Assembly (NCBI GenBank): GCA_048939995.1
Contig: JBHLOY010000001.1
Coordinates: 96,001 to 160,000, forward strand
DNA length: 64,000 nucleotides
Direction of reading: 5' to 3'
DNA from: Promethearchaeota archaeon
Lineage (GTDB): Archaea; Asgardarchaeota; Lokiarchaeia; Sigyniarchaeales; SOKP01
Shown here one piece after another: positions 23,771 to 31,857 of this stretch (positions are counted from its first letter, which is position 1; each line of letters opens with the position of its first letter). Position numbers and translations under genes: made by a program. The notes beneath the pieces were generated by a model, which was given only the letters and a program-made list of their open reading frames with translations, had not been told where the DNA came from and did not search any database.

Positions 23771-25753
23771 TTAAGCTGTTTTTACATCCATCTTTTTGCG
23801 TTCTTCTATAAGCTGTTCTACGATTTCTGGATTAGCTAAAGTCGTGACATTTCCAACATCTCCACCTGTCGCAATTGCCTTCAGAATTCGCCGCATTATC
23901 TTGCCACTCCTTGTTTTCGGTAACTCGTCCGCAAATTGTACTACATCTGGTTGAAATACCGGACCAATCTCTTTCCTAACATGCATTCTAATGTCCTTAG
24001 ATAACTTTGCAGACTTTTCAGCTCCTTGGATTAGCGTTACGAATGCCCAAATCGCCTGTCCTTTTATCTCATGTGGAAATGGTGCAACTGCGGCTTCAGC
24101 GACTTTAGGATGGCTTACGATCGCTGATTCAACTTCCATTGTCCCAATTCTATGCCCGGATACTTTTATGACATCATCAAGTCGACCAAGAATCCAATAA
24201 TAGCCATCTTCATCTCGCCGAGCTCCATCCCCTGTATAATAATACCCGGGATACTTATTGAGATAGGTGGATTTAAAACGTTCCGTATCACCCCATACGT
24301 CTCTTAGCATACCTGGCCAAGGTTTAGCTATCGCAAAGTATCCACCTTCATTTGGTTCAGTGATTTCTTCTCCTTCAAGATCAAATATCACAGGTTTTAT
24401 CCCGAGAAAGGGTAGGCAGCAAGAACCTGGTTTTGTTGGAGTCGCAGTAGCGATGGGAGTCATGATAAAGCCTCCTGTCTCTGTCTGCCAATAAGTATCT
24501 ACTATTGGCGCTCTCTCTTTGCCAACCACCCGATGATACCAAGTCCAAGCCTCGGGATTGATTGGCTCGCCAACGGTTCCTAAGACTTTCAGTGAATCTA
24601 AATTATGCTTTTTAACTGGATCATCTCCGTATCTCATTAATGCTCTAATTGCCGTCGGGGCGGTATAGAAATGAGTTACCTTATGACGTTCTACAATATC
24701 CCAGAATCGATCTACTTCGGGGAACGTAGGAACTCCTTCGAACATAAGAGATGTTGCTCCATTAGCTAATGGTCCGTAAACGATGTATGAATGCCCAGTA
24801 ATCCAGCCAATATCTGCAGTACAATACCAAACATCTCCGTCTTGATAATTGAAAACCACTTTATGGGTATAGGAGGTATATAGGATGTATCCTGCGGTAG
24901 TGTGTTTAACACCTTTTGGTTTACCGGTGGTTCCGCTCGTATAGAGAATAAAGAGAGTGTCTTCAGAATCCATATGTTCTGGTTCACAATCTTCACTCAT
25001 ATCTTTGATGAAGTCTGAATACCAAATATCTTTACTGGTATGAGATACTTCATTTCCAGTTCGTTTAACAACAATAACATGCTCAATGGTGGGTACATCA
25101 TCAATAATTTGGACTACATCACTCATTTTAGGATAGAATTTACCTGCTCTAACGGTTTCATCACTAGTAAACAAAAGTCTTGAATTAGAGTCATCGATTC
25201 TATCCTTTACAGCTTCTTTAGAGAATCCACCAAAAACAATTGAATGAATGACGCCAATTCTTGCGCAGGCTAACATTATAATGGCTAATTCAGGGATCAT
25301 TGGGAGCCAAATTGTGACCCTATCACCTTTCTTTAGACCATTTTTTTTCATAGCATTTGCGACTTTATTAACTTCCTTTAATAATTCATTGTAAGTGTAT
25401 TTCTTGACTTCTCCTGGAGCATCAGCCTCCCAAATTAGCGCAACTTTATCACCATTCCCATTTTTTACGTGTCTATCTAAGCAATTATATGCCACATTAA
25501 GTTTTCCCCCAACAAACCACTTTCCTGGGAATAAGTCTGTCTCTTCCCATACTTTTTCATAAGGTTTAAACCAATCGAGTGATTTAGCTTGTTCAGCCCA
25601 AAAATCTTCCATGTTTTCAATAGATTTGTTGTATAACTCTTGATATTCCTTAAATGACATTCCAGTTTCAGCAAATTTCGAGTTTAACTTAACAGGATCG
25701 AAAACACGAGTTTCAATAAGTATACTTTCCATCTTTTTATCTTCTTCTGACAT
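23771..25753 (-). CDS. acs: AMP-forming acetyl-CoA synthetase
   Basis: YTSGTTGKPKG, TADIGWITGHSY, DTYWQTETG, GRLDDVIKVSGHR, PKTRSGKIMRR. Confidence 0.95.
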   Translation of the reverse strand: MSEEDKKMESILIETRVFDPVKLNSKFAETGMSFKEYQELYNKSIENMEDFWAEQAKSLDWFKPYEKVWEETDLFPGKWFVGGKLNVAYNCLDRHVKNGNGDKVALIWEADAPGEVKKYTYNELLKEVNKVANAMKKNGLKKGDRVTIWLPMIPELAIIMLACARIGVIHSIVFGGFSKEAVKDRIDDSNSRLLFTSDETVRAGKFYPKMSDVVQIIDDVPTIEHVIVVKRTGNEVSHTSKDIWYSDFIKDMSEDCEPEHMDSEDTLFILYTSGTTGKPKGVKHTTAGYILYTSYTHKVVFNYQDGDVWYCTADIGWITGHSYIVYGPLANGATSLMFEGVPTFPEVDRFWDIVERHKVTHFYTAPTAIRALMRYGDDPVKKHNLDSLKVLGTVGEPINPEAWTWYHRVVGKERAPIVDTYWQTETGGFIMTPIATATPTKPGSCCLPFLGIKPVIFDLEGEEITEPNEGGYFAIAKPWPGMLRDVWGDTERFKSTYLNKYPGYYYTGDGARRDEDGYYWILGRLDDVIKVSGHRIGTMEVESAIVSHPKVAEAAVAPFPHEIKGQAIWAFVTLIQGAEKSAKLSKDIRMHVRKEIGPVFQPDVVQFADELPKTRSGKIMRRILKAIATGGDVGNVTTLANPEIVEQLIEERKKMDVKTA

Positions 25754-25839
25754 AAAATTTCACAATTTTGAATTTCTATTTTTTTACATGATTTACAAGT
25801 TTTTTTAATTTTAAAAATGAATTAAAGCTTTTTGTTCGA

Positions 25840-25866
25840 TCTTATAACACTTAAGACGTTATAAGA
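25840..25866. promoter_or_regulatory. Inverted repeat between divergent acs and the CoA-transferase-GNAT gene
   Basis: TCTTATAAC-acttaagac-GTTATAAGA, perfect 9-bp arms. Confidence 0.5.
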
Positions 25867-26028
25867 CCATCAAAAAAGGAAATTCTAAATAATTTTTAAA
25901 CATTTTATTTATAAATAATATATAAATTAGTTTGTTGAGAATTCAAAAAAAGTTAAATGAATACAGAAATAAATAATAGAAATATAGAACTCTTTAGTAA
26001 CAATTAGGATTGATATTTTTTATTTAAA

Positions 26029-27939
26029 ATGGAAAAAAAAGATTTATTAGATAAAGATTGGCGAAATAAATGGAAGAATAAGGAAATTACGGTAGTAGAG
26101 GCAATCAAAAAAATTATACCTGGAAATCGTGTCTTTATCGATACAGCATGTTCTGAGCCCCAAGCTCTAACCAATCAATTGATAAAATCTTCTGAGAGTT
26201 TATTAGATACGGAACTTATTCATTTTTTAACAATATTTCCCGAGAAGTACTTTAAGGATAAAGCAGAAGATTTATTTAGACATAATGCTTTTTTTATCGG
26301 AAAAACATTAAGAGAAGAGATTAATAAAGGACAAGCAGATTATACACCAATTTTTGCCAATGAAATTCCTTCTCTATTCGTAACTGGAAGAAAAAATTGT
26401 GATGTAGCACTCATTCAAGTTACTCCCCCTGACAGAAACGGTTTCTGTTCTTTTGGTACAAATGTAGATGTTGCTAAACCGATTGCTAAATCAGCTTATA
26501 TTACAATCGCAGAGATTAATCCCCAGATGCCCAGGACCTTAGGAAATAGTTTTATCCACATGAAGGAAATAGATTTTTATGTATATAATGATACTCCATT
26601 ATTGGAATTTCATTTTAAGGAGAAAAATCCAGAAGTAATGGATCGTATTGGGAGAAATGTCGCTGATTTAATTGAAAACAAGTCAACAATACATATTGGT
26701 AATGGCTATTTACCTAATGCTTGTTTGAAATATTTGATGAATAAAAAAGATCTTGGAATGCATAGCCATTATATCACAGATAACATAATACCCTTAATTA
26801 AAAATACCGTTTTAACCTCAAGAAAAAAGAACTTTCATCCTGAGAAGATTGTCACTAGCTTTGCATTAGGTACCAAGAAATTATTTGATTTCATCGATAA
26901 CAATCCATATATTGAGTTTTATCCATCAGATTATGTATGCAACCCCAAATATATTGGCATGAATAAAAAAATGGTGTCAATAAATCAAGCCTTACAAATA
27001 GATTTGACTGGACAGGTCAATGCCTCTACTAAAGGATATGATTTTTATTCTGGAATAGGAGATACTGTTGATTTCATGCGCGGTGCGGCATTTTCTAAAG
27101 GAGGAAAACCGATAATTATATTACCTTCAACAACAAAGAATGGAGAACAATCTACAATAGTAGCTCATTTGGATGAAGGAGCAGGAGTTATGTTATCTCG
27201 AGCTGATATCCATTATGTAGTAACTGAATGGGGTCTAGCGTATTTACATGGTAAAACCATAAGAGAACGAGTTCTTGAATTAATTTGTATTGCCCATCCT
27301 AAATTTCGTGAACAATTATTGGAACATGCTAAGAAACTAAACTATGTCTATTCCGACCAAATTTTACCTTGTGATGAAGATGGTAAAATTTGTCGATATC
27401 CAATTGAGTATGAAACCTCATTCACAACTCGAGACAATATAAAAGTAAAGATAAGACCTGTAAAGCCTACAGACGAGCCTTTATTGAAAGAGTTGTATTA
27501 CTCGCTTAATGAAAGGGATAGATACTTAAGATTTTTTGAAATTAGAAAAGAATTTACTCATTCAAGAACACAGAATGAAGTTAACATTGATTATAATAAA
27601 ATTTTTTCTATAGGGGCATTTGTAGGAGATATTGGAAAAGAGGAGATGGTAGGAAATGCGGCTTATTATTTGAATCCTAATAATAATATGGCAGAATATA
27701 GTTTTTTGGTAAGAGAGAACTATCGAGGAAAAGGTATTGGTTCTTATTTATACCATGCTTTAATAATCATTGCTAAAGAAAAGGGAATAAAAGGTTTTTT
27801 TGGAAATATACATGTCCAGAATAAAAAGACAATTCAAATTATAGGGACCGGTGGTTATACAAAAATAACTCCACCCGAGGAAGGAGAAAAAGAATTATTT
27901 TATGAAGTCTTTTTTGATAAAGAAAATTCAATGGAATAG
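26029..27939 (+). CDS. Acetyl-CoA hydrolase/transferase-like domain fused to Pat-like GNAT acetyltransferase
   Basis: DVALIQVTPPD, INQALQIDLTGQ, SKGGKPII, VVTEWG; IRPVKPTDE...YLRFF...YRGKGIG. Confidence 0.85.
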   Translation: MEKKDLLDKDWRNKWKNKEITVVEAIKKIIPGNRVFIDTACSEPQALTNQLIKSSESLLDTELIHFLTIFPEKYFKDKAEDLFRHNAFFIGKTLREEINKGQADYTPIFANEIPSLFVTGRKNCDVALIQVTPPDRNGFCSFGTNVDVAKPIAKSAYITIAEINPQMPRTLGNSFIHMKEIDFYVYNDTPLLEFHFKEKNPEVMDRIGRNVADLIENKSTIHIGNGYLPNACLKYLMNKKDLGMHSHYITDNIIPLIKNTVLTSRKKNFHPEKIVTSFALGTKKLFDFIDNNPYIEFYPSDYVCNPKYIGMNKKMVSINQALQIDLTGQVNASTKGYDFYSGIGDTVDFMRGAAFSKGGKPIIILPSTTKNGEQSTIVAHLDEGAGVMLSRADIHYVVTEWGLAYLHGKTIRERVLELICIAHPKFREQLLEHAKKLNYVYSDQILPCDEDGKICRYPIEYETSFTTRDNIKVKIRPVKPTDEPLLKELYYSLNERDRYLRFFEIRKEFTHSRTQNEVNIDYNKIFSIGAFVGDIGKEEMVGNAAYYLNPNNNMAEYSFLVRENYRGKGIGSYLYHALIIIAKEKGIKGFFGNIHVQNKKTIQIIGTGGYTKITPPEEGEKELFYEVFFDKENSME

Positions 27940-27988: not shown

Positions 27989-28801
27989 ATGAGATTTAGG
28001 TATACTGATTATCATATTCATTCTCGTAATTGGAGTACAGATGTTAGTGAAGATGGACCAATTTTTGCAGACTATATTAAGATTGCGGAAGAAGAGCGCA
28101 TAAATATTTGCTTTTTGGAACATTTTGAACTTTATTATGTTGAAAATGATAAAAAAAATCCCTTTTATAATGGCAGAATTAATGATTACTTAGAGGAGAT
28201 AGATATTCTCAAAGAATCCTATGATTTTATACTTGGAGGCCTTGAAATTGAGTATTATAAAGATAAAGAGATCGAATTAATGGAATTTATGGATGACTAT
28301 GGTAAAGAATTAGATTTCATTGGAGGTTCAATTCATGAATGGATTATTGATTATCCTATAACAAATAGGGATAGATTAGAAGATTTGACTAAAAAATTAA
28401 CTATAAAACAAATTATTGATGACTATTTCGAAGTCTTTAAAGACATGATTAATTCTAAAATCTTTAAAAATGTGTGTCACATAGATACAATATTTCGCTA
28501 TATTAATGAGAATGATATAAAGCCTACAGAAGATTGTGATACATCAGATGAGAGAATTTTAGAATTAGGGCGTTCATGTATTAATAATAAGATTCAAATT
28601 GAATATAATCTGTCAGGTGAAAGATTTTCTCTAGGGCGAACCTTTCCTTCGAGAAATATAGTAATGAATCTCTTAAAAGAAGGAGCATCATTTTTTGTTG
28701 GTTCAGATTCTCATTCAATAAAACATTTCAAAGATCAAATCCCAAATGTTATAAAAGCATATGATTTAATTAAGTCATTTCAGAGATTAAAAGGATTTTA
28801 G
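27989..28801 (+). CDS. PHP-family phosphoesterase (histidinol-phosphatase-like)
   Basis: DYHIHS, LEH, GLEIEY, GSIH, CHID, GSDSH. Confidence 0.85.
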   Translation: MRFRYTDYHIHSRNWSTDVSEDGPIFADYIKIAEEERINICFLEHFELYYVENDKKNPFYNGRINDYLEEIDILKESYDFILGGLEIEYYKDKEIELMEFMDDYGKELDFIGGSIHEWIIDYPITNRDRLEDLTKKLTIKQIIDDYFEVFKDMINSKIFKNVCHIDTIFRYINENDIKPTEDCDTSDERILELGRSCINNKIQIEYNLSGERFSLGRTFPSRNIVMNLLKEGASFFVGSDSHSIKHFKDQIPNVIKAYDLIKSFQRLKGF

Positions 28802-28807
28802 CATATA

Positions 28808-29521
28808 ATGGAGTCAAAAGAGTTTTTAAATCGATTAAATCAATGGGATAAAAGGTTTATTTTAAGATATAATGGAATAGGAGGAAAAGGATTTACATAT
28901 ACCTTAAAACTTATATCTTTTACTGGACGAGAAACTATTTGGTTAATCTTAATGGTGTATTACCTATTTATTTGGTATGATCCCTATGTATTGGCTCATA
29001 TAAGCATAACTTTTTTAATTGGGCTCATTATTATTACTCCCATAAAAAGAATATTTAATCGATCTCGACCATTTGAGCAATTAGAAAGTATCAAAATTCT
29101 GGAGAGGAAGCCCACCTCAAGAAGTTTTCCATCTTGGCATGCTTATAACGTTACATCGCAAGGATTGTTAATTGGTTATCTGTTGAATTCATTATTTATA
29201 ATGATCCTGTTTCTTTTATTTGCTGTAATCGTTGGGTTCTCAAGAATTCAACTAGGCGCTCATTATCCTAGTGATGTTATTTTTGGATATGTTATAGGAT
29301 TAATCGGGTTTATGATATCAGTATTTCTGTTTTCACCATTATTTTTTGAATTAATTAAGCTTCTAGAGATGATTATACCATTTGAAATACAATATTTTAG
29401 AATTAATCCTTGGTTATTTGAACATATTTGGTATATTATTTTGTGTATAGGAATGTTTTGTTTAATATTTGTTATCTCTAGTTATAAAATTTTAAAAAAT
29501 TTCTTTAAAAATAGGGCTTAA
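28808..29521 (+). CDS. PAP2-family membrane phosphatase
   Basis: KRIFNRSRP, SFPSWH, SRIQLGAHYPSDV. Confidence 0.9.
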   Translation: MESKEFLNRLNQWDKRFILRYNGIGGKGFTYTLKLISFTGRETIWLILMVYYLFIWYDPYVLAHISITFLIGLIIITPIKRIFNRSRPFEQLESIKILERKPTSRSFPSWHAYNVTSQGLLIGYLLNSLFIMILFLLFAVIVGFSRIQLGAHYPSDVIFGYVIGLIGFMISVFLFSPLFFELIKLLEMIIPFEIQYFRINPWLFEHIWYIILCIGMFCLIFVISSYKILKNFFKNRA

Positions 29522-30741
29522 AGATTAAGTCTTTTTTTCTTATCAAAAAGTTGTTTTAATTCATCAAGAACCTTCAGTCGAGAATCAGCTGGATTAACTC
29601 GTGCTTGTCTTTGATCAGGGTTAGCTATGCTAATTGGAATTCCACTTTGAGCAACTTGAAATGCTCCACTCTCAATTGCTCTCAATCTACTGTCAAGATC
29701 ACTTAATTGTTTCGATATACTTTCTGAAAGGCGAATTACAGCATTCATTGTTTCTTCCAAAGTTTTACCTAAGCCTTCTACTTTTCTTAAAGTTGGATTT
29801 GTTAATGAATCCGTAGTTTTCATAACATCTTTAATATATTTTGAAAATTGAGGTTCATTTGATATTAATGAGTAAATAGATGTAAGATAAGCTTCATAAT
29901 CAAATCCAAATTGATTCATTAATGTGTTAATATTATCCTTTAACAATTCTATGCTCAACAGGATTTCAGGTTCAGTTTTTATATCTGGATCTACCTTATG
30001 AATATAAATTACAATAAATGGATTTTCTTCTAAAGTTAATAACACATTTAATATTTCTTCAAAATATTCAAAAGACTCAGCAAATCTTTCTGAATCTTGA
30101 ATATCAATAACATATATTAATAGATCTATTTGAAGGAAATAATATTCTGGGTGTTTTAAATATTTATTACGATATTGTTTTTGACCCCCCATATCCCATA
30201 TAAAAACATCAAGTGCAGATTCTTCGGTTTTTATAAATTGACGCTGTACCCCTTTGGTTGGTTTTAGATTTACTAAACCAGTTATCCCCAATTTTCCTCC
30301 GTATTTAGATAATATGGCAGTTTTACCAGCATTATCTAACCCGATGATCATAATCTTTTGAGCTTTTTTTTCAAAAATCTCTTTATCTTTTGCATTAATT
30401 ATTATAGAACTAATAGCAATAGCTTTCTTTAAGTTTTTTTCGAACTCAGGGTAATTTTGTTTTAGATCCTCAATTATCTTGTTAATTTCTAATTGATCTT
30501 CAACACTTTTCTTATTTATAGTTTCAAAGGGATCTTCTTTATTAATTTTTGAGAGTTCTTCGATATTTGTGACATTAAAAATTTCTTCTAAGAATTTAGA
30601 GATAATTTTATCAAAGAATTTAAAAGAATGAATGGGTAATTGCCTTATATCATCCATAGTGGTTAATTTACTTATTTTGGCTTCTTTAGGGTCTAAGAAT
30701 CTCGAAAATATATTAATAATATTTGAAATATCTGTTGACAT
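29518..30741 (-). CDS. Multidomain Arf/Rag-like small GTPase
   Basis: GLDNAGKT, PTKG, WDMGGQ, HKVD, TSIY; extra N-terminal domain and C-terminal coiled coil. Confidence 0.85.
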   Translation of the reverse strand: MSTDISNIINIFSRFLDPKEAKISKLTTMDDIRQLPIHSFKFFDKIISKFLEEIFNVTNIEELSKINKEDPFETINKKSVEDQLEINKIIEDLKQNYPEFEKNLKKAIAISSIIINAKDKEIFEKKAQKIMIIGLDNAGKTAILSKYGGKLGITGLVNLKPTKGVQRQFIKTEESALDVFIWDMGGQKQYRNKYLKHPEYYFLQIDLLIYVIDIQDSERFAESFEYFEEILNVLLTLEENPFIVIYIHKVDPDIKTEPEILLSIELLKDNINTLMNQFGFDYEAYLTSIYSLISNEPQFSKYIKDVMKTTDSLTNPTLRKVEGLGKTLEETMNAVIRLSESISKQLSDLDSRLRAIESGAFQVAQSGIPISIANPDQRQARVNPADSRLKVLDELKQLFDKKKRLNL

Positions 30742-30948: not shown

Positions 30949-31857
30949 ATGCCATCAAAATTTGAAGAAGATAACTTTTTTGAAGAAGATGTTGAACAGT
31001 GTTGTGATTCCCCGAAAATCAGTGAGGAAGATGGCTTTAACGTTTGTTTAAATTGTGGTTATGTATATAGTAGAATACTGGATGATTCACCAAGAAGAGC
31101 ATTTACTCAAGAGGAAATTCAGAAAAGAAAAAGCAACGAACGTGTTTATAGCCCTATAGGACCCAGAACTATCATCCGGGGAAGTCGTGATGCAAGGGGA
31201 ACATTACTTAGTCCAAAATTTAAATCAAAGTTTAATAGATTAGCCAAAATTCATCGGTCTTTAACTACGAGTTATGAACGGAATCTATGGATTGCTTTAC
31301 CAAATCTCCAAAGATTGCAAAAGCGATTAGGAATCCCGGATACGGTTGCTGAAGATGCTCTACGGATTTATACTCAAACTGTTAAGAAGAAACTGACTAT
31401 GGGAAGAAGCATTGATACGTTACTCTCAGCTTCAATTTTTTGCGCTTTACGTGTTCATGGTATTCCTAGAACTGTAGAAGAAATAACAAAAGTGGCCCAA
31501 ATTCCCAAAAAAAAAGTAATAAAAAGTTATAGATTAATTCTCATGGAAGTTTTACCTAATTTAAATTTAAAAGTCCAACATTTCTCACCAGATCGGTACG
31601 TTGATAAGTTTAATGACGAATTAAAATTATCTATGCAATGTAGAAATGTAGCGGTAAAAATTATTGAGAATGCGAAGGAGCATGGATTTAATTCAGCTGG
31701 GAAAGATCCAAAAGGTATTGCAGCAGCGGCAATTTATATTGGATCAAAAATTTGTAATGAAAATAGAACGCAAAAAGAGATAAGTAAGCTAGCTCGCGTA
31801 ACTGAAGTAACTTTACGAATGAGAGTTAAAGATCTAATGAGATATGCGGACATTTAA
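30949..31857 (+). CDS. tfb: Transcription initiation factor IIB (TFB) paralogue
   Basis: Zn ribbon CC...CLNCG, two cyclin folds (GRSID...PRT, GKDPKGIAAAAIY, TQKEI...VTEVTLR). Confidence 0.9.
   Translation: MPSKFEEDNFFEEDVEQCCDSPKISEEDGFNVCLNCGYVYSRILDDSPRRAFTQEEIQKRKSNERVYSPIGPRTIIRGSRDARGTLLSPKFKSKFNRLAKIHRSLTTSYERNLWIALPNLQRLQKRLGIPDTVAEDALRIYTQTVKKKLTMGRSIDTLLSASIFCALRVHGIPRTVEEITKVAQIPKKKVIKSYRLILMEVLPNLNLKVQHFSPDRYVDKFNDELKLSMQCRNVAVKIIENAKEHGFNSAGKDPKGIAAAAIYIGSKICNENRTQKEISKLARVTEVTLRMRVKDLMRYADI

Follow-up and report, generated by a model that had tools for sequence, protein, structure and literature searches.

What might a coenzyme A (CoA)-transferase-like domain without its catalytic glutamate be doing when it is joined to a lysine acetyltransferase-like domain and encoded back to back with the gene for acetyl-CoA synthetase (Acs)? 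This question is raised by a locus of Promethearchaeota archaeon assembly GCA_048939995.1, within a stretch of 64,000 nucleotides (contig JBHLOY010000001.1, positions 96,001 to 160,000 of the forward strand) that we refer to as the window and to which the coordinates below apply. A preliminary description of the window had placed the fusion gene divergent from acs, and we found the same layout with matching coordinates. The acs gene, encoding an AMP-forming Acs of 660 amino acids that is the presumed target, occupies 23771 to 25753 on the minus strand, and the gene for a 636-amino-acid fusion of a pseudo-CoA-transferase to a Pat-type GNAT domain occupies 26029 to 27939 on the plus strand, as delineated by Pfam, phmmer, and an AlphaFold2 (AF2) model. 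Control of Acs by lysine acetylation is textbook metabolic feedback. The features of this locus suggest that the fusion and acs probably make up an undescribed kind of regulatory module, in which Acs would be switched off by lysine acetylation.

The N-terminal half of the fusion (residues ~9 to 436; 26053 to 27336, plus strand) is a catalytically degenerate, AbfT-like CoA-transferase-fold domain, with matches to PF02550 (residues 9 to 188, E = 2e-28) and PF13336 (residues 281 to 434, E = 5e-61). When the first 436 residues were compared with solved AbfT structures by phmmer, they aligned without gaps at an E value of 5e-112, and identity to the AbfT and RipA structures 3GK7, 3EH7, 2OAS, and 3QLI was 37 to 47%. 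The AF2 model of the fusion had a predicted local distance difference test score (pLDDT) of 90 and a predicted template modeling score (pTM) of 0.86, and Foldseek superposed its N-terminal module on AbfT with target-normalized template modeling scores of 0.92 to 0.95. Thus, the two-domain fold of the AbfT/Cat2 subfamily is present, while the catalytic Glu and the GxGG(Q)xDF and QxGIG motifs of that subfamily are absent, and the equivalog model for butyryl-CoA:acetate CoA-transferase (TIGR03948) gave 252 bits against a cutoff of 675.

The catalytic residue of AbfT (Glu238) and RipA (Glu249) is a glutamate that forms a glutamyl-CoA thioester. In the gap-free phmmer alignment this position is taken in the fusion by His247 (codon 26767 to 26769, plus strand): GMHSHY (residues 243 to 248, nucleotides 26755 to 26772) stands opposite GIH(S/T)EM of the AbfT structures, with His247 matching residue 238 of Clostridium aminobutyricum AbfT (3GK7) and, by offset, RipA Glu249, which entries 4N8K and 4N8L carry in mutated form. 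Alignments revealed further changes on the same strand, namely, ENKSTIHIGNG (residues 216 to 226; 26674 to 26706) for EDG(S/A)T(L/I)QxGIG, in which HIGNG stands opposite QLGIG of the AbfT structures; Cys304 (codon 26938 to 26940) for the conserved Asn of DYVN(D/N)P; and SGIGDTVDF (residues 341 to 349; 27049 to 27075) for SGxGGQxDF, in which the oxyanion-loop Gly345 has become Asp. Loss of the catalytic Glu and alteration of the QxGIG and GxGGQxDF motifs (to HIGNG and GIGDTVDF), both read from the letters in the preliminary description, were therefore confirmed against solved structures.

We compared 41 members of the clade to which the fusion belongs (the dead clade) with 86 live-looking domains and found that 54 of the 63 positions conserved in at least 85% of the live domains are retained in the dead domain. 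The nine changed positions include six clear motif substitutions (D217N, G218K, Q222H, E247H, N304C, and G345D/E), four of which sit in three known catalytic motifs. Because these substitutions fall within a domain that is confidently modeled and superposed, the fold has been retained and the catalytic apparatus specifically lost. Among ~120 close homologues (74 to 96% identity), position 247 is never Glu, being mostly His and sometimes Tyr, Leu, or Phe, and position 345 is always Asp or Glu. His247 was considered as a stand-in nucleophile and rejected on account of this variation. The replacement residues in the dead clade are either fixed (H222, C304, and D/E345) or co-varying, the latter dividing it into two subclades, one with HIGNGY and GIGD and the other with H(V/I)GFGD and G(L/I/F)GE (N225/Y227-D345 versus F225/D227-E345). 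The retained fold and the 54 of 63 positions argue for a preserved ligand cleft, and the fixed and co-varying replacements look like a maintained site.

The strength of selection was assessed in 16 genomes that hold both the dead copy and a live paralogue, using the same genome pairs for both. The ratio of nonsynonymous divergence (dN) between the dead and live domains was 0.97, and mean amino acid identity was 0.83 and 0.84, respectively. The GNAT domain of the dead copy was under tighter constraint than its counterpart in the live paralogue (ratio of 0.76), and the linker, the only faster part, evolved ~1.8 times as fast. No frameshifts were found in the dead domain across the 16 genomes, and its ratio of dN to synonymous divergence (dS) was ~0.06, a rough value at saturated dS. 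Purifying selection on the dead domain is thus as strong as on its live paralogue, which fits a retained noncatalytic role, and since dN is equal in the two, the dead domain is not decaying.

A linker (residues 437 to 470; 27337 to 27438, plus strand) with a Pat-like YPxxxE lead-in connects this domain to a Pat-type GNAT domain (residues ~471 to 625; 27439 to 27903, plus strand), in which PF00583 matched residues 526 to 602 (E = 5e-10). The series YPxxxE...RPVKPTDE...RYLRFF is the Pat signature. The best solved relatives of residues 456 to 610 were PatZ (9it0/9isq, E = 9e-15) and the GNAT domain of Streptomyces lividans PatA (4nxy), together with Mycobacterium tuberculosis Pat (E = 3e-7) and Sulfolobus Pat (E = 5e-7). 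Glu556 (codon 27694 to 27696, plus strand), the presumed general base, aligned with PatZ E809 within the AE(F/Y) strand and was invariant in 12 Asgard fusions and kept in nearly all of 80 loci. The acetyl-CoA pyrophosphate-binding loop, motif A, is RGKGIG (residues 566 to 571; 27724 to 27741, plus strand); a review defines this motif in GNATs as R/Q-x-x-G-x-G/A. Of the NCBIfam models covering the domain, mycobacterial Pat scored highest, yet with 54 bits against a cutoff of 460. By these alignments, the GNAT half is homologous to Pat. The closest solved relatives, Glu556, and motif A thus agree with the Pat type assigned to this domain in the preliminary description, which had also proposed a convergent version of the Pat switch. 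Homology to Pat ruled out convergence for the GNAT domain, and what stands of that proposal is that the accessory domain differs.

The product of the window acs gene scored 956 bits with TIGR02188 (cutoff, 725) and 988 bits with NF001208, and it combines the TIGR02188 equivalog score with the PX4GK acetylation site motif. As anticipated in the preliminary description, it retains the acetylation site lysine, Lys618 (codon 23900 to 23902, minus strand), in PKTRSGK at residues 612 to 618; reviews describe this lysine in other Acs proteins as the site acetylated by Pat and AcuA enzymes. The protein is the sole true Acs encoded in its genome assembly (3.75 Mb in 38 contigs, 98% complete), where the next-best ligase is 31% identical and at least 15 further AMP-forming ligase paralogues occur. 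Possible erasers of acetylation in this genome are three Sir2 (sirtuin) and four histone deacetylase (HDAC)-type genes. One Sir2-family deacetylase gene is convergent with the gene for an AMP-forming acyl-CoA ligase paralogue (C11:356282-358546).

We also searched 151 genomes of the phylum for both proteins. The dead orthologue was confined to the window's own family, and it was divergent from acs in all 16 genomes in which both ends were assembled, so that the pairing, whose conservation in other genomes the preliminary description had raised as a check, held wherever it could be assessed. The two genes were directly adjacent (185 to 300 bp) in nine of these genomes, and 1.5 to 2.8 kb of unrelated genes (TPR, ferredoxin, CAAX protease, radical SAM, and flavodoxin) lay between them in the other seven. 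In genomes also carrying the dead copy, the live paralogue was never near acs. Every own-family genome in which acs was found also has the dead copy or a GNAT-only derivative, and five have neither gene, one of which keeps the live paralogue; such co-loss may go back to one event or to one missing contig. A seven-gene block of acs, fusion-PHP-PAP2, GTPase, and TFB is syntenic across the family, and the acs-fusion pair outlasts it, being kept in L053, L066, and genus g4, where PHP and PAP2 are gone. In g4, what lies divergent from acs is a scar of residues 13 to 54, in a different frame and with a stop, running straight into an intact GNAT open reading frame from the equivalent of residue 457 (~60% identical), so that residues ~55 to 456 have been deleted. 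There the GNAT-acs pairing persists, and the dead domain is accessory.

Linkage to acs was also seen outside this family, in further clades of the fusion family that lend it independent support. In the Asgard family f7, the best fusion is divergent from an MFS transporter-acs pair in ~18 genomes, and in f16, the fusion is convergent with acs. In a genome scan, a true Acs (at least 53% identity) was encoded within 7 kb of 9 of 73 non-dead loci, against roughly 1% or less expected by chance on our own estimate; these nine belong to Planctomycetota (Pirellulales and Sedimentisphaerales), Anaerolineae, Actinomycetota, Kiritimatiellae, and one uncultured archaeon. Since the acs-linked fusions of f7, f16, and the nine other loci all have the catalytic motifs, linkage to acs is characteristic of the fusion family rather than of its dead form. 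Of the preliminary interpretation, the lost active site and the Pat-type GNAT stood, and the acs pairing proved to be conserved, but this pairing is not defined by the pseudoenzyme state. In the f7 loci L043 to L045, acs is directly preceded on its strand by the MFS transporter gene, the two being divergent from a live fusion, and this pair may be an acetate or carboxylate uptake-activation operon.

The genome of the window encodes a second fusion, L002, which is 49% identical to the first and has intact QMGIG, GVHSEV, and SGIGGQVDF motifs plus the GNAT domain, and it also contains L003, an AbfT-like stand-alone gene. Among 1.8 billion cluster representatives searched, CoA-transferase-GNAT fusions of ~600 to 660 amino acids formed a large family, and species-representative genomes with fusions came from Desulfobacterota, Planctomycetota, Anaerolineae, Nitrospirota, Myxococcota, and others, as well as from the archaeal Methanothrix/Methanosaeta, Thermoplasmatota, and Asgard archaea, including Lokiarchaeum ossiferum. 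Most members have all catalytic motifs. The Glu is absent in 33 of 80 representatives, and a FastTree phylogeny of these 80, with the motif columns left in, had at least 18 Glu state changes; the residue was lost many times in the family. Loss was somewhat more frequent in fusions than in stand-alone enzymes (32 of 78 versus 15 of 62; Fisher P = 0.047), a marginal difference that we dropped as evidence and use only descriptively because the sample was ranked by similarity to the dead query.

In an IQ-TREE phylogeny (66 rows), the dead clade and P0123 grouped (SH-aLRT 98) with live clades, namely, the same-family paralogue clade and one clade of a neighboring family; therefore, the dead form is a duplicate of a live fusion. 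The duplication would have arisen within one Asgard lineage, and the dead copy took or kept the acs-linked place. P0123, whose genome was not encountered among 400 Asgard genomes searched, is the most distant dead relative, 51% identical, that has H222 and D345 in common with the dead clade and no Glu, and because these derived residues are common down to 51% identity, the dead state is of long standing. Within an uncharacterized acetyltransferase class, the dead form is thus a derived one. Other variants were noted in this family. An unrelated fusion, P0139, has Gln for Glu together with GIGD. The fusion of the cultured Lokiarchaeon Candidatus Lokiarchaeum ossiferum (L072; CP104013), which could be a tractable organism for this protein class, has Asp for Glu (GIHSDS) and GGL for GGQ, and no acs was found within 7 kb of it. 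Five fusions, P0128, P0130 (~960 amino acids), P0154 (1,013 amino acids), P0171, and P0195, carry an extra N- or C-terminal extension of ~330 amino acids, and their catalytic Glu is also gone (Val, Gln, Asp, Gly, or Pro stands there).

The reading that we prefer, with a probability of roughly 55%, is that the fusion is a Pat-type lysine acetyltransferase and that its N-terminal ~430 residues are a pseudoenzyme accessory module with a regulatory role, a docking role, or both. In the mechanism that we propose, acetyl-CoA, another short acyl-CoA, or a CoA species would, when abundant, fill the remodeled former active site, and the ligand-filled dead domain would stabilize the active arrangement of the GNAT domain. 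The GNAT domain would then acetylate Lys618 of the divergently encoded Acs and so block acetate adenylation, and a sirtuin or HDAC-type deacetylase of the same genome would reverse the modification. We infer all three of its central elements, namely, Acs as the substrate, binding of a CoA species by the dead domain, and control of the GNAT domain by that binding. The closest worked-out analogy is PatZ, in which an acyl-CoA synthetase-like domain without activity has a higher affinity for acetyl-CoA than the GNAT domain, brings about cooperative activation, and contributes to the Acs pocket; the CoA-transferase fold would take the part of that inactive domain.

Several points weigh against this reading. 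With its GxGG changed and charged residues newly introduced, the dead domain could have lost any ability to bind CoA, and it is dispensable in at least one lineage because g4 manages without it. The dN/dS values are only rough because dS is saturated. Because of the syntenic block, the adjacency to acs within the family is partly inherited and the genomes are not independent. Linkage to acs also needs no dead domain, as the linked fusions of other lineages are catalytically intact, and a metabolic link, in which Acs recycles acetate freed by a transferase, could account for some of the association.

Among the alternatives, the one that fares best, although we regard it as doubtful, is that the dead domain is only a scaffold for dimerization and Acs docking and that the GNAT domain answers solely to its own acetyl-CoA site. 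Such a role would agree with strong purifying selection over the whole domain and not merely the pocket, with the altered oxyanion loop, which contacts the thioester in live enzymes, with the direct part that the regulatory domain of PatZ plays in forming its Acs-binding site, and with the pTM of the model, which suggests a fixed interdomain arrangement. In contrast, the fixed and co-varying replacements point to a maintained site rather than a filled-in cavity, and g4 keeps a working-looking GNAT domain without any platform.

It is less likely still that the adjacency to acs is historical and that the GNAT domain acts on other AMP-forming ligases, on chromatin proteins, or on a small molecule. 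The seven-gene block could have been inherited as such, unrelated genes separate the pair in seven genomes, the host genome offers at least 15 other AMP-forming ligases, and PatZ is known to have many substrates. Against this, the pair survives loss of PHP and PAP2 in three cases, the association recurs in unrelated clades with differing arrangements, and own-family genomes with acs always have the dead copy or its GNAT-only derivative.

We give little weight to the idea that the active site was rewired rather than lost, with the carboxylate shifted from position 247 to 345 and an acyl-enzyme or acyl-CoA hydrolysis still possible. An acidic residue is invariant at position 345 in the dead clade and P0123, the unrelated P0139 pairs its Glu-to-Gln change with GIGD, selection is as strong as on the live enzyme, and position 345 presumably sits in the loop beside the nucleophile. 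However, Asp and Glu swap freely there (21 versus 20 in the clade sample), an exchange that would be unusual at the site of a positioned nucleophile; position 247 gives no assistance, because it is His, Tyr, Leu, or Phe; and the losses of the oxyanion Gly, the Gln that follows it, Q222, and N304 came together. Finally, the proposal that the transferase half is dying after duplication and that the GNAT domain alone matters, for which the deletion in g4 and the frequency of Glu loss in the fusion family could be cited, was rejected as highly improbable, being contradicted by the equal dN of dead and live paralogues and also by the 83% mean identity across genera without frameshifts, the retention of 54 of 63 conserved positions, and the persistence of the dead state to 51% identity.

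How does a pseudoenzyme-GNAT acetyltransferase, as we read the fusion, compare with known systems? Reviews and a 2025 PatZ structure paper class GNAT lysine acetyltransferases into types I to V, in which regulation falls to domains of the NDP-forming synthetase, cAMP, ACT, or NADP+ kind, with none derived from a CoA-transferase. Our search of the papers available to us found no description of a CoA-transferase-GNAT acetyltransferase, which is not proof of absence, and database names are automatic only ("GNAT family N-acetyltransferase" and "acyl-CoA hydrolase/GNAT superfamily N-acetyltransferase"). Pat/PatZ of Salmonella enterica and Escherichia coli (9it0 and 9isq) has a homologous GNAT domain (E = 9e-15) with E809 at the position of E556 and the same YPxxxE...RP...RFF lead-in, it has a large N-terminal domain from an acyl-CoA-handling enzyme that has lost catalysis, and Acs is its known target, as it is the presumed target of the fusion. 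The accessory domains are unrelated, that of Pat being NDP-forming acyl-CoA synthetase-like (~700 amino acids) and that of the fusion an AbfT-type family I CoA-transferase (~430 amino acids), a fold that sets the fusion apart from type I Pats; in addition, Pat is tetrameric with measured allostery, while the fusion is known from sequence and a model.

The type III Pats, including M. tuberculosis and Mycobacterium smegmatis cAMP-Pat, actinobacterial ACT-Pat, and the Myxococcus NADP+-sensing MxKat, likewise have a ligand-binding domain (300 to 400 amino acids or less) N-terminal to an Acs-acetylating Pat-type GNAT, an arrangement that the fusion would share if its putative ligand and Acs roles are correct. 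Their domains are classical small-molecule sensors (cNMP-binding, ACT, and Rossmann), unlike the enzyme-derived pseudoenzyme of the fusion. In Bacillus subtilis, the acetyltransferase gene acuA is also divergent from the Acs gene, acsA, and the AcuA GNAT inactivates Acs at its catalytic lysine in response to acetyl-CoA, presumably the counterpart of what the fusion would do. In contrast to the fusion, AcuA belongs to another GNAT subfamily, stands alone with no CoA-transferase domain, and has AcuB and AcuC as partners. AbfT/Cat2 and RipA share the fold of the N-terminal half, and the fusion differs from them by the loss of Glu, the oxyanion GxGG, Q222, and N304 and by the appended GNAT domain. 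The uncharacterized live CoA-transferase-GNAT fusions have the same architecture as the dead one (40 to 52% identity) and are sometimes acs linked, but their Glu, GxGGQxDF, and QxGIG are intact. Sulfolobus solfataricus Pat (type IV, 3F8K) is, like the fusion, an archaeal Pat-type GNAT and has the GNAT-only form of the g4 derivative; unlike the fusion, it lacks an accessory domain, and Alba is the substrate known for it.

A broader hypothesis, which we offer tentatively and consider unlikely as it stands, is that all CoA-transferase-GNAT fusions constitute a sixth, widespread class of prokaryotic acetyltransferases. Live members would sense the acyl-CoA/carboxylate balance through a covalent glutamyl-CoA state set by the acetyl-CoA:acetate ratio, dead members would do so through a rebuilt noncovalent pocket (K218, H222, H247, C304, and D/E345), and the GNAT domain would set Acs activity accordingly.

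The spacer between acs and the fusion gene (275 bp; 25754 to 26028) contains an AT-rich block of 20 nucleotides, TTTAAACATTTTATTTATAA (25895 to 25914), which resembles a TATA box and B recognition element (BRE) and is unique in the window. This block was near-invariant in 11 orthologous acs/fusion spacers, the remainder of which aligned poorly, and it is probably a shared promoter region, providing TATA/BRE for one or both divergent genes. Downstream of the fusion gene and on the same strand lie genes for a HisJ-family PHP phosphatase and a PAP2 phosphatase (27989 to 29521, with gaps of 50 bp and 6 bp), which are syntenic in most relatives and gone in some that still have the acs-fusion pair. 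Two archaeal/Asgard hallmarks are encoded close to the locus, an Arf/RagA-type GTPase (29518 to 30741) and TFIIB (30949 to 31857). The window is AT-rich (G+C of ~30%), and the nearest database proteins come from metagenome-assembled genomes labeled Hod-, Prometh-, Loki-, Thor-, or Hermodarchaeota.

Additional observations concern the acs genes of relatives. The Acs of f16 (L041 and L042) is 79 to 81% identical to the window Acs, and that of the own-family genus g4 (L046 and L047) is ~71% identical, a pattern that suggests lateral transfer of acs between Asgard lineages. Several acs genes are interrupted within conserved motifs (YWQ|TETGG and GEPI|NPEAW) by in-frame inserts of exactly 30 nucleotides, which contain stop codons and a variable hairpin. 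These were seen in L053 (G138:C52), L062, L065, and L173 (G144:C2, two sites), and likewise in L172 (G033, another family) and L175 (G125); the window acs has none. In L054 (G104:C50), the acs gene beside the dead fusion changes frame at residue 505/506 and so falls into two parts, which may be due to a frameshift or another insert.

The CoA-transferase-GNAT architecture is common in anaerobic Bacteria and Archaea, including the acetate-dependent Methanothrix and the Asgard relatives of eukaryotes. If the proposed role is correct, a new type of sensor would be added to the control of Acs by acetylation, and the live, dead, and deleted domains of related genomes would form a natural series from an enzyme to a regulatory pseudoenzyme. 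It would also call for caution against counting such genes as 4-hydroxybutyrate or butyrate CoA-transferases in metabolic reconstructions of Asgard archaea.

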